IMG/VR virus record: IMGVR_UViG_3300019124_000017
Span: 1 to 39,540 of that record
Strand: one strand, 5' to 3'
DNA: 39,540 bases
Source of the DNA: a virus
A program made the translations under genes and the position numbers. Numbering within the stretch: position 1 is the first letter of the stretch; every line of letters starts with the position of its first letter. Positions 2,721 to 37,547 of the stretch are shown here, in pieces. The notes beneath the pieces are model-generated. The model saw only the letters and a list, made by a program, of their open reading frames with translations, was not told the DNA's origin and ran no database searches.

Positions 2721-3788
2721 ATGCCCCGCAAGCCCCAGCAGCCCAACCAGCGCCCCCGCTTTCGCGTGCGCACCCGCCGCGGCGCGGCCGGCCAGGTCTA
2801 CACCTACTACTTCTGGGACGGCCGCACCCAGGGCCGCGGCGAGGTGCCGCTGGGCAGCGACTTCACGGCCGCGCTGGAGCGCTACGAGGAACTGGAGGGC
2901 CTGCGCTCGGCGCGCAAGGACAAGATCGCCGAGGCCTTCGACCGCTTCGAGCGCGAGGTGCTGACGCCCGAGCACTACCCCAGCGCCACCACCCGCCGCG
3001 ACTACCTGCTGTGCCTGACCAAGCTGCGGCCGGTGTTCGGCAACGCGGTGTGGGCCAGCGTCAAGACGCCACACCTGGCCGCCTACCGCGACAAGCGCAG
3101 CGCCAAGACGCGGGCCAACCGCGAGCTGGCCGTGCTGTCGATCGTGTGGGGGTGGGCGCGCGAATGGGGCCTCACGCAGCTGCCCTACCCGGGCTTTCGC
3201 ATGCGCAAGAACAAGGAAAGGGCGCGGCTGGTGCAGGTGAGCGACGAGGCATTCGAGGCGATCTACGCCGAGGCCGACCCCGTGCTGCGCCAGGCGCTGG
3301 ACACGATCACCGCCACCGGCCTGCGCATCACCGACGTGCTGCAGCTCACGCTGCCGCAGTTCAACGGCGGCCAGCTGCTGCGCGTCACGCCCAGCAAGAC
3401 GCAGCGCAAGGGCAAGACCATCGAGCTTGCGCTGAACGACCCTGAGCACCCCACCATCCTGGCCGACCTGTACGCGGCCCGCATGGCGCACCGCGGCGCG
3501 CTGCACATGCGCTGGCTGGCCGGCAGGGGCAATGAGACGATCACCTACCGGATGCTGGCCGATCGCTTCGGCGATGCGCGCGAGAAGGCCGCCAAGAAGG
3601 CCGCAGAATCGGGCCAGGATGCATTTTCAGCGCACGTCCGGGGGTTGATCCTCAGGGACATGCGAAAACACGCCGCAGACAAAGCGGAGAGCCTGCGCCA
3701 CGCCCAGGAACTGCTGCAGCACGACGACGTGCGCGTCACACGGCTGCACTACCGGGGCAAGGGCGAGCGGGTGAAGCCGTCGCGTTAG
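2721..3788 (+). CDS. int: Tyrosine recombinase, the phage integrase.
   Basis: 355 aa. Contains TGLRITDVLQL (box I Arg), LRDMRKHAA and LLQHDDVRVTRLHY (box II His/Tyr). It is the last gene of the + operon and lies next to the tRNA-derived attP. Confidence 0.85.
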   Translation: MPRKPQQPNQRPRFRVRTRRGAAGQVYTYYFWDGRTQGRGEVPLGSDFTAALERYEELEGLRSARKDKIAEAFDRFEREVLTPEHYPSATTRRDYLLCLTKLRPVFGNAVWASVKTPHLAAYRDKRSAKTRANRELAVLSIVWGWAREWGLTQLPYPGFRMRKNKERARLVQVSDEAFEAIYAEADPVLRQALDTITATGLRITDVLQLTLPQFNGGQLLRVTPSKTQRKGKTIELALNDPEHPTILADLYAARMAHRGALHMRWLAGRGNETITYRMLADRFGDAREKAAKKAAESGQDAFSAHVRGLILRDMRKHAADKAESLRHAQELLQHDDVRVTRLHYRGKGERVKPSR

Positions 3789-4300: not shown

Positions 4301-4347
4301 CAGCGGCGGCCTTGTTAGTGGGCACTATGCGCTAAGTCGTTGTCAGC

Positions 4348-4406
4348 TGGTGCCCGGGAGGGGGCTCGAACCCCTATGACCGTTTAAGGTCCGCGGATTT
4401 TAAGTC
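4348..4406 (-). other. attP core: the 3' 59 nt of a tRNA-Leu(UAA) gene, from the anticodon loop to CCA. It is not a complete tRNA.
   Basis: The reverse complement reads GACTTAAAATCCGCGGACCTTAAACGGTCATAGGGGTTCGAGCCCCCTCCCGGGCACCA. This gives a T arm AGGGG-TTCGAGC-CCCCT, a long variable arm and a loop CTTAAAA. No matching 5' acceptor strand (GCCCGGG), D arm or 5' anticodon-stem strand lies upstream. Confidence 0.75.
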
Positions 4407-4509: not shown

Positions 4510-4542
4510 CGAACCGAGGGCCGGCTGCGCTATCCTGCACTG

Positions 4543-4758
4543 GTGAAACGTACAGCGTTTTATTTCTTCCGGTACCGCAGCCCGACCACCGGCCGGTGGG
4601 TGAAGTCGCGCCACCGGGCGAAGCTGGAGGACATCCCGGCTGGAGCGGAGCCGATCACCGACACGGTGGAATGGCGCGAGCTGCCGGCGACGCCTGAGGA
4701 GGCGCGGGCCTTGTGCACGGGCGCCTGGCAGCGCGGGAAGCACGAACCCCGAGGCTAA
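4543..4758 (+). CDS. Small basic hypothetical protein. The maximal ORF starts at 4474.
   Basis: GTG at 4543 (VKRTAFYFFRYRSPTTGRWVKSRHRAKLEDI...). Strong GC3 bias. The longer form would cover the arm-type repeat at 4501. Confidence 0.45.
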   Translation: MKRTAFYFFRYRSPTTGRWVKSRHRAKLEDIPAGAEPITDTVEWRELPATPEEARALCTGAWQRGKHEPRG

Positions 4759-33325: not shown

Positions 33326-33817
33326 TCAGGCCACCCGCTGCAGGTTGGCCGGCTTGGACGCCTCGTGCTTGGCCCGGCAATGGGCCAGCAGCGTGTGCGC
33401 TGCCACCAGCAGGGCCTCGCCGTTGGCTTCGATCCGGCGCAGTTCGTTGGCGTTGATCTCGCCGTCGCGCGCGTCCTCGGCCACCTCCTCGGCCAGCTGG
33501 CCAACCCGCAGCGCGAGCTTGGCCAAGTCCACGGCCAGATCCGCCTCCAAGTCGTTGCGCGGCACCATCAACGGCACCGCGTGGCGGTCGAACTCGGCCT
33601 CGATCTTGTCCAGCGGCACCAGCGCGCCGGGCATGCCCAGCTGCTGGCACAGCCGCATGATCTGCAGCGCATCCTCCACGCCCAGCTTGGCGCTGCTGCC
33701 GGCCGGCGGGCACAGCTCGTGGCGAAGCGTGCCGGGGTGCTTGTCGAGCCGCTGCGCGACAGCAGCCACCCCGCCCGGGTAGGCCTGGGCCAGCCGCTGG
33801 AATGCATCGAGGATCAT
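33326..33817 (-). CDS. Phage regulatory protein of CII type (CP76-like).
   Basis: 163 aa from MILDAFQRLAQAYPGG...LRHELCPP...EDARDGEINANELRRIE. It lies downstream of the Cro-like gene. Confidence 0.55.
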   Translation of the reverse strand: MILDAFQRLAQAYPGGVAAVAQRLDKHPGTLRHELCPPAGSSAKLGVEDALQIMRLCQQLGMPGALVPLDKIEAEFDRHAVPLMVPRNDLEADLAVDLAKLALRVGQLAEEVAEDARDGEINANELRRIEANGEALLVAAHTLLAHCRAKHEASKPANLQRVA

Positions 33818-33903
33818 GTGAGGGCCCCTCCATTGCTGTGATGGATCGCGCACCGCACCGCCGGCATACTGCTTGCCATGGGGGTTGCGCCTTGACGACG
33901 AAG

Positions 33904-33957
33904 AAAAAACGCCCCGCGCTCACGCGCACCGGTCGGAGGGAGAGCCCGACCGGGCGA
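33904..33957 (-). terminator. Structured GC-rich stem region followed by T6, lying between the Cro-like and CII-like genes (tR1-like position).
   Basis: The minus strand reads CGCCCGGTCGG...CCGACCGG...GGGGCG TTTTTTC. The inner stem is 8 bp, CCGGTCGG/CCGACCGG. Confidence 0.4.
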
Positions 33958-34062
33958 CCCCGCGCGCGCACTGCCGTTGCTGGCAGCCAGAGGGGGCACA
34001 AGACCGACCACAGAAGCCGTGGTGAAGAAGGTGGCCGGCTGCATGACTTGAACCACCACGGA

Positions 34063-34449
34063 TCAGCAGCCGCCGCGCTCGCGCATCACACGCCGCTGCG
34101 GCCGGTTGCGACGGCGCTCGACGCGGCCGGCCAGTGGCAGGTGCAGATCGATCCCCTCGCCGTATTCGTTGGCGAGGCGGCGCTCGGCATGGTCGGCGCC
34201 CCCTTTACGCTGGGCATCCGGCTCGCCGGACGCCTTTGGTGCGGTGGCACCGTCAGCCTGCGTCCCAGCCGCCCCCAGCAGAGAGGGCGGCAGGTGGCGG
34301 CGCGCCAGCGCTGCCAGCACCCGGTTCTCTATGTCCTTCGTGAGCACGACGGGCCACTGCGACACCGCCTGGACAGAGATCCCGCAAGCCTCGGCCGCAC
34401 TCCGGGGGGTGCCGCCCAGCAGTCGGATCGCTTCTTTCTTTTCCATCAT
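34063..34449 (-). CDS. Cro/YdaS-like HTH regulator with a long basic C-terminal extension. The maximal ORF extends to 34461.
   Basis: MMEKKEAIRLLGGTPRSAAEACGISVQAVSQWP. It is divergent from the cI-like gene. Confidence 0.65.
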   Translation of the reverse strand: MMEKKEAIRLLGGTPRSAAEACGISVQAVSQWPVVLTKDIENRVLAALARRHLPPSLLGAAGTQADGATAPKASGEPDAQRKGGADHAERRLANEYGEGIDLHLPLAGRVERRRNRPQRRVMRERGGC

Positions 34450-34452
34450 CGG

Positions 34453-34488
34453 ATTAAACATGCTTAACCGTCTGACTGTCAAGCATGC
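34453..34488 (-). promoter_or_regulatory. PR-like promoter (TTGACA-18-TTTAAT) overlapped by operator-like GCATGCTTGACAG / ACATGCTTAAC sites.
   Basis: The -35 is the reverse complement of 34477-34482 and the -10 is the reverse complement of 34453-34458. An inverted pair CATGCTTAAC-9-GTCAAGCATG is present. Confidence 0.5.
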
Positions 34489-34525
34489 CTTACCCCTTCC
34501 CGGCACCGCGCTTAAGCTGGCTTAC

Positions 34526-34990
34526 ATGGATGAGGAAAAGGGCGGCCCGAGACGGAAACTCGTGAAGTTTCCCGAGGCGGCAGCGCGCCTACACGAAGCC
34601 ATCGCGCGCTCGGGCCTAGACCCAACAGAGGCCAGGCGCCTGCTTGTGCAGCGCCTCGGCATCAGCAATTCCGCGATCGGCGATGCCCTTAAGGGGTTCA
34701 CGCGGCTGCGGGCAGACAACACAGCGCTGGCCGCCCGCGCGCTGAACGTCAGCGCCCATTGGCTGGCAACAGGCGAGGGCTCGCTGGACCCCGGGCTATC
34801 GCCCGAGGTGATGCGGATCGCCGTTCAGCTCGAATCGCTCAAGAGTGACCCCGCTCGGCGCGCGTGGGCGATTCGCTTCTGCGAGCTATTTGCGTTTGCT
34901 CGCCCGCCTCAGACGGCCGCGGAGACTCTGGATCTGGTCGCAGAGGTGACCGGCGAACTTCGAGCCACCCCTGCGCATCTAGGAGGCTGA
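34526..34990 (+). CDS. cI-like repressor with an HTH and no S24 peptidase domain.
   Basis: 154 aa from MDEEKGGPRRKLVKFPEAAARLHEAIARSGL...LGISNSAIGDALKG...ALNVSAHWLATGEG. It is divergent from the Cro-like gene. Confidence 0.65.
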   Translation: MDEEKGGPRRKLVKFPEAAARLHEAIARSGLDPTEARRLLVQRLGISNSAIGDALKGFTRLRADNTALAARALNVSAHWLATGEGSLDPGLSPEVMRIAVQLESLKSDPARRAWAIRFCELFAFARPPQTAAETLDLVAEVTGELRATPAHLGG

Positions 34991-35312
34991 CAAACGGCAT
35001 CCGCGTCCTGCCCGTGCGGGCCGCGCGCATGCAATACCGCCAGGCGGTGCGCTCCAGCGCCTCATCGACCAGCAGCCCGGCAGCGACCTCCACCACGTCG
35101 CCATCCTCGGCTGTGAACATACTATCGAGCCCATGCTCGCACAGCGTGACAACTGCGCCCCGCATGTCGATCAACGCCTTGACAGCGCTTGCACGCGCCA
35201 ACTCGTCGCGCAACAGCCGCCGCACGCCAGCGGCGCCCTCTGCTGTCAATAGCCCGGTGACTTGCAACAGCAGCGCCCCGCCAATCCGATATACCTCCAC
35301 ACGCACCGACAC
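34839..35312 (-). CDS. STAS-domain-like (anti-sigma-antagonist fold) protein in the immunity region.
   Basis: 157 aa. MSVRVEVYRIGGALLLQVTGLLTAEGAAGVRRLLRDELARASAVKALIDMRGAVVTL...FVSLLDAQGWL. The 3' 152 nt overlap the cI-like gene convergently. Confidence 0.45.
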   Translation of the reverse strand: MSVRVEVYRIGGALLLQVTGLLTAEGAAGVRRLLRDELARASAVKALIDMRGAVVTLCEHGLDSMFTAEDGDVVEVAAGLLVDEALERTAWRYCMRAARTGRTRMPFVSLLDAQGWLEVRRSPLRPDPESPRPSEAGEQTQIARRSESPTRAERGHS

Positions 35313-35550
35313 TTTTTGCCCTTCTTGGTTTAAAGCCCACTCCTGCCCCCCCTAGATTTAGGGGGGCCGTCTCCGGGGAAACGTAGATCGGGGCCAAAAC
35401 CCGACACAGCTTGTCACAAAAGTTCAGTCTTGCCACCGTTCGGTCCCTGCGGCACTGACCTGCAAACGACTGATCACCGGAGCCACTGCGGCACACGCAA
35501 AGGGCAGGTGCACCGTGCACCGCGTGAAAGTACCTACAGCTTGAGATCAT

Positions 35551-35585
35551 GCATGCTTGACAGCGTTTAAAGCATGCTTGATCAT
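35551..35585 (+). promoter_or_regulatory. PL-like early promoter (TTGACA-17-GATCAT) with two GCATGCTTGA(C/T) operator-like repeats 21 bp apart.
   Basis: TTGACA lies at 35557-35562. The 13-mer GCATGCTTGACAG at 35551-35563 is identical to the reverse complement of 34476-34488. Confidence 0.5.
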
Positions 35586-35610
35586 GCCGCCATCGCAACC
35601 GGAGACCGCG

Positions 35611-35796
35611 ATGGCCACCAGAAGCTACCGCTGCTACTACCACCCCCGCCCTGACGAACCCGCCGAGTCCGGCGTGCTGCCCTCCGTGCAGCTGCAGGCC
35701 AGCAGCGCGGAAGAAGCCGCCCGGCTGGCCTTTATCACCCTCGGCAAGCCGGTCGACCGCGTGGAGCGCATCGAGCCCGAGCAGGTGGCAGCGTGA
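35611..35796 (+). CDS. Small hypothetical early protein.
   Basis: 61 aa. GGAGA lies 6 nt upstream of the ATG. It is the first gene after the PL-like promoter. Confidence 0.55.
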   Translation: MATRSYRCYYHPRPDEPAESGVLPSVQLQASSAEEAARLAFITLGKPVDRVERIEPEQVAA

Positions 35797-35978
35797 CAGG
35801 CTACCGCCCCACCGCCAACTTCGTGGCCGTCGCCCTCGTGGCCGCCCTGGCCTTCGCCTGGTTGACCGCTTGCGGCGGCGGCGACGCCGAGCCCGGCACC
35901 TGCGACCAAGCCGCGCAGCACCTGCCCCCGGACAGCAAGGCCCGCCCCGCCGAGCCCTGCCCGCCGGCCAGCCGCTGA
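35793..35978 (+). CDS. Small lipoprotein.
   Basis: 61 aa with a GTG start overlapping the upstream stop. Signal peptide plus lipobox AFAWLTAC|GGGD. Confidence 0.5.
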   Translation: MTGYRPTANFVAVALVAALAFAWLTACGGGDAEPGTCDQAAQHLPPDSKARPAEPCPPASR

Positions 35979-36736: not shown

Positions 36737-37071
36737 GCCCCGACCTGATCCGCCTCACCGGCCACCTGCACCGCGACGCGCGCACCGCCGCCGGCGTTGA
36801 CGGCAGCGCCTTCCTGATCGTGGAGGTGAGCCAGGGCCAGCGCAGCGTGTGCGCCGTGGCGCGCCACCGCATGGGCACCGGCCCCGCAGCCCACTTCGCC
36901 GCGCAAAACCGCGCCTACCACCTGCGCCGCGGCGCCCGCGTCACCGTCTACGCCACCGGCTGGACGGTGGACCCCGCCAACCAGCAGCTGGTGCTGTGCG
37001 GGGTGTCGCGCGTGGAGGCGATGGACGCGCCCGCCATCACTCACGAGCCCGCAACCGAGGCCACCGCATGA
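36733..37071 (+). CDS. Hypothetical early protein.
   Basis: 112 aa from MSPDLIRLTGHLHRDART. ATGA overlaps at both ends. Confidence 0.5.
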   Translation: MSPDLIRLTGHLHRDARTAAGVDGSAFLIVEVSQGQRSVCAVARHRMGTGPAAHFAAQNRAYHLRRGARVTVYATGWTVDPANQQLVLCGVSRVEAMDAPAITHEPATEATA

Positions 37072-37547
37072 CCACCGCCCTGCTTCTTTTCGCCGCCACC
37101 TTCTGCGTGGTCTTCGCGCTCGGCCTGCAAAGCCTGAACGTCAACGGCGGCCACCGGCTGGCCGCGGCGCTCACGTCCTTTCTGATCGGCACCAGCCAGC
37201 TGTATCTGTTCAAGGTGCTGCCCGGCCCCACTGACGCCCTGCAGGTGGCCTGCTACCTGCTCGGCGGCCCGCTGGGCATCGTGTGCAGCATGGTGGCGCA
37301 CCCCTGGCTGATGGCCCGCCTGCTCAAGCGCCCGGCTTCCTCGGCCGCAGTGCCGCAGCCCGCGCCCCAGCCGGCCCCGCCGCCGCCCCTGCGCCCGCCG
37401 CGCGACGTCACCGCCGCCGACGTGGAGCACACCCGCCTGCACCAGCTGGCGCGTGACCTTCTCGACCCCGAGGCCCTGGGCTACGCGGTGCCGCCCGAAG
37501 TGCGCAACCGTGCCCGCCAAGCCCTCGGCATGACCCACCGGGAGTAA
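37068..37547 (+). CDS. Integral membrane protein with about 3 TM helices and a Pro-rich linker.
   Basis: 159 aa from MTTALLLFAATFCVVFALGLQSL. Confidence 0.55.
   Translation: MTTALLLFAATFCVVFALGLQSLNVNGGHRLAAALTSFLIGTSQLYLFKVLPGPTDALQVACYLLGGPLGIVCSMVAHPWLMARLLKRPASSAAVPQPAPQPAPPPPLRPPRDVTAADVEHTRLHQLARDLLDPEALGYAVPPEVRNRARQALGMTHRE

Follow-up and report, generated by a model that had tools for sequence, protein, structure and literature searches.

Many temperate phages carry repressors that RecA cannot cleave, and the route by which such phages are induced is mostly not known. Where induction of non-cleavable repressors has been described, it is brought about by LexA-controlled antirepressors, which can also act on heteroimmune repressors (PMC3121763). 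The subject of the present analysis is a candidate for a further member of this functional class. It is found in a temperate phage genome of 39.5 kb and 68% GC, here called the window, by which is meant the whole analysed stretch of 39,540 nucleotides (nt; positions 1 to 39,540 of IMG/VR virus record IMGVR_UViG_3300019124_000017). Between the cI-like repressor gene and the PL-like promoter of this phage lies a gene on the minus strand (34839-35312) for a small protein with the fold of STAS domains, which are protein-protein interaction modules. The gene is convergent with the repressor gene (34526-34990, plus strand) and overlaps its 3' end by 152 nt. The preferred reading, at a little short of an even chance, is that the STAS protein would be an inducible antirepressor that docks on the C-terminal domain of the repressor, with convergent transcription acting as a second layer of control.

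Comparison with described systems

Among known antirepressors, the closest parallels are Tum of phage 186, GfoA, GfhA and GftA of the Gifsy phages and AntC of N15. All are small proteins that serve repressors without an S24 domain, and all are encoded directly downstream of a LexA box. Three lineages of STAS homologues have such a box; the window copy has none. In the Gifsy phages a palindrome precedes the LexA box in front of the antirepressor operons (PMC3121763), a layout that the loci of the STAS homologues resemble. In contrast to these antirepressor genes, the STAS gene sits inside the immunity region and overlaps the repressor gene, and its product belongs to another fold class and has no sequence similarity to theirs. 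Searches of Pfam, PHROG, NCBIfam and PADLOC likewise gave no sequence match of the window protein to Ant/KilAC, Coi or Qtip.

Of published systems, the one that comes nearest to joining a STAS domain with a repressor and with DNA damage is CapS/CapK, in which a repressor made of a STAS domain and a winged helix-turn-helix is phosphorylated at Ser54 by an adjacent kinase that is activated by DNA damage (PMC13373217). The likeness lies in the coupling of a STAS domain to a transcriptional repressor and in de-repression on DNA damage. In CapS, however, the two domains are fused and the control is by phosphorylation, whereas here the STAS protein is separate, carries no conserved Ser and has no kinase listed beside it.

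By its position the gene recalls lambda rexAB and phage 434 hex, which occupy the same slot between cI and the PL operon. The 434 Hex protein, encoded next to cI by a gene that overlaps its end, is said to modulate induction by damping it. The initial annotation had drawn the analogy with rexAB, and this holds for position only: rexAB and hex share the strand of cI and depend on PRM for their transcription in the lysogen, whereas the STAS gene lies on the opposite strand and is unrelated to them in sequence and fold, with no Rex similarity. In full-text literature searches, no paper turned up that connects STAS proteins with antirepression or with phage immunity regions.

Fold of the STAS protein

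The open reading frame (ORF) of the STAS gene starts with a GTG codon at 35312, encodes 157 amino acids and ends with a stop codon at 34839-34841. The initial annotation had given the extent of this ORF and of its 152-nt convergent overlap with the cI-like gene exactly, and its proposal of a STAS/SpoIIAA-type domain followed by a disordered tail was borne out by structure prediction. With a 54-sequence alignment as input, AlphaFold2 returned a model with a predicted local distance difference test (pLDDT) score of 88.3 and a predicted template modelling (pTM) score of 0.77. By DSSP of this model, residues 4-117 (34962-35303, minus strand) form a structured STAS core in the order β-β-α-β-α-β-α-β-α, composed of strands at 4-10, 13-22, 45-55, 77-81 and 104-107 and helices at 24-40, 59-66, 84-99 and 110-117. 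The last of these helices, α4, contains A113 and W116 and falls within the overlap with cI.

When the model was compared with the PDB by Foldseek, the top 19 matches were all STAS proteins. The leading matches are to SpoIIAA (1tid and 1th8, E 2e-5, template modelling score 0.67-0.71 normalised to the target), with the DUF3478 "SpoIIAA-like" protein 2q3l second best and RsfB, RsbV and RsbS also present. A profile of the family matched PDB SpoIIAA as well (E 4e-4), covering residues 5-53 only, which correspond to residues 3-51 of SpoIIAA. The STAS fold is confirmed, while membership in the curated sequence families PF01740, PF13466 and PF11964 at gathering score is not. Among the 54 family members, weak sub-threshold matches were found to PF11964 in five cases (best E 0.0014), to PF01740 in four (best E 0.048) and to PF13466 in three (best E 0.024). 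A fold search of BFVD returned no phage protein; a giant-virus protein fell below E 0.001, and a second came at 1.3e-3.

The C-terminal tail (residues 118-157; 34842-34961, minus strand) is rich in Pro and Arg and is modelled with a pLDDT of about 70. It contains no strand and no helix of at least four residues, and its one helical turn, at 135-137, is three residues long. In the alignments a P-L-x-P...P motif at about residues 122-135 is loosely conserved. The final 20 or so amino acids are specific to this phage, and the tail is about 20 amino acids longer than that of the closest homologue.

The anti-sigma-factor antagonists SpoIIAA, RsbV and RsfB (PF01740, PF13466) thus resemble the window protein in fold and size and provide its best structural matches, and a 'DL[SR]' strand is conserved between them. 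They differ in that the window protein has no Pfam match, is encoded by a phage and is tied to a repressor. A further difference concerns the regulatory residue. The equivalent of SpoIIAA Ser58 is Cys58 in the window protein, and the same column holds Ser or Thr in 24 of the 54 members (T13, S11, G10, D5, A4, N4 and C2, among others), a distribution that reads as the pattern of a helix N-cap residue. The phosphorylatable Ser/Thr that marks anti-sigma-factor antagonists is thus not conserved. Similarly, no GHKL kinase or PP2C phosphatase (HATPase, SpoIIE) is listed beside the STAS genes at those loci that have tables of genes and Pfam matches; in the window, the neighbours checked are cI, cro, cII and small ORFs. 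The DUF3478 proteins (PF11964; structures 2q3l and 2ook) are likewise single-domain and STAS-like and have no regulatory Ser, but the five matches to this family are those below threshold. DUF3478 has no known function and is not known to be linked to phages or repressors.

Coding capacity and homologues

Spurious ORFs are plentiful in this DNA, with 48 of at least 40 amino acids within 4.5 kb. The evidence that the STAS gene is coding comes from the ORF listing together with coding statistics, homologues and the structural matches. Over 34991-35312, which is the part outside the overlap, the STAS frame has a GC content by codon position of 0.72/0.50/0.79, which is a coding pattern, and its codon-usage score (+0.12) is the top of the six frames and level with those of cI and cro. 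Within the overlap, codon usage is poor in both frames (-0.24 for cI and -0.67 for STAS), as expected for dual coding.

When 1.84 billion representative proteins were searched exhaustively with phmmer, homologues were found in 53 clusters, with lengths of 104-201 amino acids and alignments mostly over residues 3-127 or so. In the resulting 54-sequence family alignment, W116 is invariant and G20, D49, G101 and A113 are nearly so; the window protein has all five. The family sequences are only 25-55% identical to one another yet keep W116, D49, G101 and the fold. All ten of the homologue clusters that were looked up are metagenome-only and either unnamed or 'hypothetical'.

Other searches returned far less. 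A word-indexed protein search found one homologue with the STAS protein and four with the profile, far fewer than the exhaustive phmmer search. No match to the STAS protein was found by tblastn in 50,697 deposited phage genomes, and a scan of 185,579 species genomes with a pattern from the close alignment gave no STAS relative. The same kind of scan of the metagenome collection returned the contig of one related locus (L001) only. There were zero matches of the STAS protein in Pfam (E up to 1), PHROG, NCBIfam and PADLOC. The window STAS protein is itself missing from the protein database, though the window repressor is present there, and at another related locus (L019, 1301-1730) it is the repressor of the overlapping pair that is not called in the public annotation. 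Overlapping modules of this kind may be under-counted in surveys based on annotation.

Convergent overlap with the repressor gene

The dual-coding overlap in the window occupies 34839-34990, where STAS residues 108-157 are antisense to repressor residues 105-154. The W116 codon (34965-34967) and A113 both lie inside it, so a missing stop codon does not account for the overlap. To see how general the arrangement is, 15 independent loci can be compared: the window, L001, L007, L008, L009, L011-L015 and L019-L023. In all 15, the STAS homologue is convergent with a helix-turn-helix (HTH) repressor gene and overlaps its 3' end, and a cro-like gene comes next on the STAS strand. The overlaps range from 86 to 184 nt and, in 14 of the 15, the length is 2 mod 3, which means that the two genes keep the same relative reading frame.

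The position of the repressor stop codon is similarly constrained: of the 14 loci that were mapped, 12 have it ahead of the invariant Trp by 8-10 codons. Reading of the sequences places this stop antisense to conserved Phe-Thr codons, which in the window are Val-Ser. The DNA opposite the end of the repressor gene therefore always encodes the last STAS helix, and the overlaps differ in length because the STAS tails do. Within the core overlap, the STAS frame is better conserved than the repressor frame; the last 27 or so residues of the repressor are a low-complexity sequence rich in Pro, Glu and Ala in many lineages.

Upstream of the STAS homologue, the loci vary in gene content. On the same strand as the homologue, L021 carries a MazE/PIN toxin-antitoxin pair together with Rap1a (1003-1683) and L019 carries an Adhesin_E-like protein (494-898). 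At L007 (3498-3923) and L023 (9290-9890) the upstream position is taken by an ORF for a secreted protein or lipoprotein, HNH-like by eye only. The interval between the PL operon and the STAS gene is a hotspot for the insertion of morons.

The repressor and its C-terminal domain

The likeliest start of the repressor is the ATG at 34526, which gives a protein of 154 amino acids; the public call (P0054) begins at 34460 and gives 176. An HTH domain occupies approximately residues 17-85, for which Pfam offers weak HTH-type matches only. In agreement with the initial annotation, which had described a repressor without an autocleavage domain, the window repressor has no Pfam match to S24 (Peptidase_S24), and none is found for the repressors of the related loci in precomputed Pfam lists. 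A word-indexed protein search with the window repressor returned its own protein alone. Residues 21-114 have a weak match (E 0.007) to the PADLOC model of CapH. CapH is the HTH repressor of CBASS operons and is cleaved by the CapP protease after DNA damage; the match is probably generic HTH similarity.

The C-terminal domain of the repressor (residues 90-154; 34793-34987, plus strand) consists of about three predicted helices, placed at 93-103, 109-124 and 131-146 with low confidence (single-sequence AlphaFold2, pLDDT 51). An alignment of 10 repressors defines the motif LSxEALxIAxxLDxL...P.RR.WA...C.LAAFA for this domain. The window and L001 repressors are 70% identical at residues 90-149, and their N-terminal domains do not align. 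Taken across the loci, the HTH domains of the repressors found with STAS homologues are of three or more unrelated types, whereas the C-terminal motif is common to all. Where the overlap is short, helices one and two of the C-terminal domain lie outside it, so their conservation is no by-product of dual coding. Scans of IMG/VR with a pattern for the C-terminal domain and with a pattern for the STAS protein return the identical two contigs. A profile of the C-terminal domain matched no known family in the PDB and Pfam, the only hits being spurious ones to designed proteins.

The repressor of Ralstonia phage YO158_1 (ON170264.1; L024, 1453-2773) shares the HTH type of the window repressor, with 54% identity over 52 amino acids. 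It has a different C-terminus, and there is no STAS gene in this phage. As judged from these comparisons, the heritable unit appears to be the STAS gene plus the C-terminal domain of the repressor, with differing specificity domains recombined onto it. In YO158_1 the repressor is followed by a convergent but non-overlapping ORF of 265 amino acids that belongs to no PHROG family and may be an analogous but unrelated partner gene.

Sequences upstream of the STAS gene

LexA boxes were sought as CTGT-N8-ACAG with up to one mismatch at 14 loci; L023 was inspected by eye and has a shorter, AT-rich palindrome. Perfect boxes precede the STAS gene in L001 (CTGTATATCCTTACAG) and L021 (CTGTATAAACATACAG), and in L022 there is a box with one mismatch and consensus flanks (TACTGGATACATTTACAGTA). 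All three lie 20-45 nt upstream of the STAS start, the two perfect ones at 22-44 nt. The other scanned loci have no box within one mismatch at this place. The approximately 75 kb of distinct locus DNA contains four perfect boxes, two of them within the roughly 1% that is just upstream of the STAS gene, and we estimate the chance of two of four falling there as below 1e-3. LexA motifs of the alpha-proteobacterial, Gram-positive and Xanthomonas types are absent upstream of all copies. The other perfect boxes are at 5418-5433 in L022, where a small gene that follows an HTH_31 gene has its start overlapped by the box, and at 1555-1570 in L001; these may mark additional phage genes under SOS control. 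In the window, a LexA-like site with one mismatch occurs at 4540-4555 within another ORF.

Six lineages share a second element, GGCTCA-N5-TGAGC(C/T), a palindrome that is invariant apart from its spacer and is present once per locus just upstream of the box (L001 8074-8089, L008 4897-4913, L019 939-955, L020 257-273, L021 1864-1880 and L022 2943-2958). It lies 45-75 nt upstream of the STAS start in phages that have unrelated repressor and Cro types. The right arm of the palindrome is 17-18 nt from TACAGT and may act as a -35 element. A sigma-54 promoter at the palindrome was also considered and was rejected by eye against the sigma-54 consensus.

In the window, the STAS gene is preceded by a non-coding stretch of about 240 nt (35313-35556, minus strand). 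Because the gene is opposite to the cI strand, it needs its own promoter, which would be expected within this stretch. At 35345-35367, or 33-55 nt upstream of the STAS start, there is a GC-rich inverted repeat, GCCCCCCC-TAGATTTA-GGGGGGC. The repeat (CCCCCCTA-N4-TAGGGGGG) occupies the position of the palindrome in the homologues with a different sequence. Folding of the upstream hairpins was no better than that of shuffled controls, and no claim of RNA structure is made. An operator search found no repressor operator near the STAS gene start (35313-35556).

A possible inducible antirepressor and its alternatives

Under the favoured reading, the small, single-domain STAS protein would bind the helical C-terminal domain of the repressor and inactivate it, and antirepression would serve as the induction route where RecA-assisted cleavage of the repressor is not possible. 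The docking domain and the gene of the antirepressor would travel as one module, to which recombination attaches DNA-binding domains of different immunity specificity. In some lineages the promoter of the STAS gene would be shut by LexA and the gene would fire on DNA damage. As a second layer, STAS transcription into the 3' end of cI would oppose cI expression through collision and antisense RNA and may read through into cro and cII; a scan found no terminator-like site between the STAS stop codon and the cro-like gene. Transcripts from PRM, in turn, would cross the STAS gene over its full length in antisense. We infer the physical binding from one kind of evidence, the genetic linkage of the STAS gene to the repressor C-terminal domain, and the antirepression, antisense and read-through effects are likewise inferred.

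An inducible antirepressor would explain the constant pairing of a non-cleavable repressor with the STAS gene, the co-segregation of gene and docking domain while DNA-binding domains vary, and the SOS control of the gene in some lineages. The ability of described antirepressors to act across operator specificities fits a conserved target domain that does not bind DNA. The suggestion of the initial annotation that induction may need an antirepressor or antisense mechanism gains indirect support from the LexA boxes of three lineages and from the constant link to the repressor C-terminal domain. The window copy has no LexA box within one mismatch upstream, and no claim of SOS control is made for this phage.

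That missing box is one of several points that weigh against an antirepressor. LexA boxes occur in only three of the 15 lineages, and the promoter scan found no leftward sigma-70-like promoter in 35313-35556 of the window. Physical overlap alone could account for the co-inheritance of the STAS gene with the C-terminal domain of the repressor. Furthermore, a phage gene under LexA control need not be an antirepressor, as illustrated by the dinI homologues in Gifsy phages. Lastly, searches of Pfam, PHROG, NCBIfam and PADLOC gave no sequence similarity to known antirepressor families.

A bolder version, which we think unlikely, treats the locus as a self-contained partner-switching toggle between lysis and lysogeny. 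The STAS protein would sequester the repressor by way of a dedicated docking domain, the two genes locked together at their 3' ends would silence each other through antisense RNA and collision, and STAS transcription would read into cro. In lineages without a LexA box, the window among them, the STAS domain or the promoter of its gene would then sense a signal other than SOS, such as a ligand, a host factor or a protein that binds the palindrome, and induction would have a route that does not depend on SOS.

A STAS protein that helps the repressor would fit the linkage to its C-terminal domain equally well, binding the domain to stabilise, oligomerise or protect the repressor as a co-repressor or in the manner of 434 Hex, which offers the precedent of a cI-overlapping gene that modulates induction. 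The STAS domains of CapS, moreover, are dimerisation modules of a repressor (PMC13373217). A helper is nevertheless unlikely here, as convergence with cI should make the expression of the two genes interfere, and the LexA boxes in three lineages imply a gene that is off in the stable lysogen and on at DNA damage, which is the wrong timing for maintenance.

To about the same low degree, the gene could be a host-directed moron whose STAS-only product titrates a host anti-sigma kinase or other partner, or excludes superinfecting phages. Its best structural matches are anti-sigma antagonists, and the region from the repressor to the PL operon holds variable morons in the relatives (MazE/PIN, Rap1a and the ORF that is HNH-like by eye). 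Unlike those morons, however, the STAS gene has a fixed position and strand relative to the repressor in all 15 loci and a fixed frame phase in 14, and PADLOC returned no match to it. The initial annotation had raised the possibility that the protein plugs into host partner switching, and this is not supported, given Cys58 in the window protein, Ser/Thr in fewer than half of the family and no kinase or phosphatase listed nearby in the loci with tables.

It is quite unlikely that the dominant role is at the level of RNA and transcription, through convergent transcription and read-through into cro, with the protein secondary or a modulator of SOS like DinI or PsiB. The phage 186 switch uses the interference of convergent promoters. 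The universal convergent overlap, the invariably co-oriented cro, the lack of a terminator found before cro and the LexA-controlled promoters of three lineages would all suit such a role, but the protein is under clear purifying selection, as its Trp, D49, G101 and confident fold at 25-55% identity attest, and a role of the RNA only cannot explain the gene. Protein and RNA-level mechanisms are compatible and not exclusive.

As far as sequence evidence reaches, a chance 'shadow' ORF in GC-rich DNA is refuted and exceedingly improbable. In its favour, long spurious ORFs abound, the public gene call of the contig apparently omits the STAS ORF and codon usage inside the overlap is poor. Against it stand a coding frame that is the best of the six outside the overlap, the residues conserved across 53 homologue clusters and the confidently predicted STAS fold.

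Immunity region and phage genome

The remaining elements of the immunity region are arranged around the STAS and repressor genes. The cI-like gene matches PHROG repressor families (E 4e-8). The cro-like gene, of P22_Cro / YdaS type, is at 34063-34461 on the minus strand, which places it on the STAS strand and downstream of the STAS gene across the antisense of cI. Beyond it is a gene for a cII-like activator (33326-33853, minus strand) of the Phage_CP76 family (Pfam E 1.7e-17; PHROG E 5e-18). A terminator-like hairpin with a T run lies between the cro-like and cII-like genes at 33907-33928 (minus strand), in the position of lambda tR1, and hints at antitermination control of the operon that is equivalent to the rightward one.

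On the other side of the STAS gene, the promoter scan located the rightward PL-like promoter at 35557-35585 (TTGACA-17-GATCAT). Two operator-like palindromes, TCATGCATGCTTGA and TAAAGCATGCTTGA, overlap it at 35547-35581, and two of the same type are found between the cI-like and cro-like genes at 34454-34492, in an OR-like region. The consensus of these palindromes is TCAAGCATGCTTGA. The window has five matches to it where 1.3 are expected, a count that was not reached in any of 100 shuffles. An Rfam search over 33800-35900 gave no meaningful match.

Two ORFs of the PL-side operon may be mentioned. The first (35793-35978, plus strand) encodes 61 amino acids with a lipoprotein-type signal sequence (...AFAWLTACGGG). 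The second (36849-37547, plus strand) encodes 232 amino acids, of which residues 76-154 match a PHROG holin family (E 1.4e-8), and the operon is an odd site for a holin.

Elsewhere, the window encodes an integrase (2721-3788), a large terminase, a DnaB-type helicase and an O-like initiator, and at the DNA level its terminase shares about 74% identity with the terminase of Ralstonia phages. A partial tRNA gene was recognised by eye at 4343-4400 on the minus strand, comprising the 3' part with the T-arm and acceptor end (...GGGGTTCGAGCCCCCTCCCGGGCACCA); ARAGORN found no complete tRNA there. It lies downstream of the integrase gene and probably represents the attP core of a phage that integrates into a tRNA gene.

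Implications

Sequence and structural comparisons point to a new, putative module of the antirepressor type, which would belong to a functional class already known. If the STAS protein is an antirepressor, STAS would be a new fold in that class. It would also represent a portable module of two parts, an antirepressor and its docking domain, that can be combined with any DNA-binding specificity. The STAS and repressor genes are in themselves a clean and ancient case in which both strands of one piece of DNA each encode a conserved protein. Finally, the family is so far metagenome-only and unnamed, and a function, if established for one member, would be transferable to some 50 sequence clusters at once.

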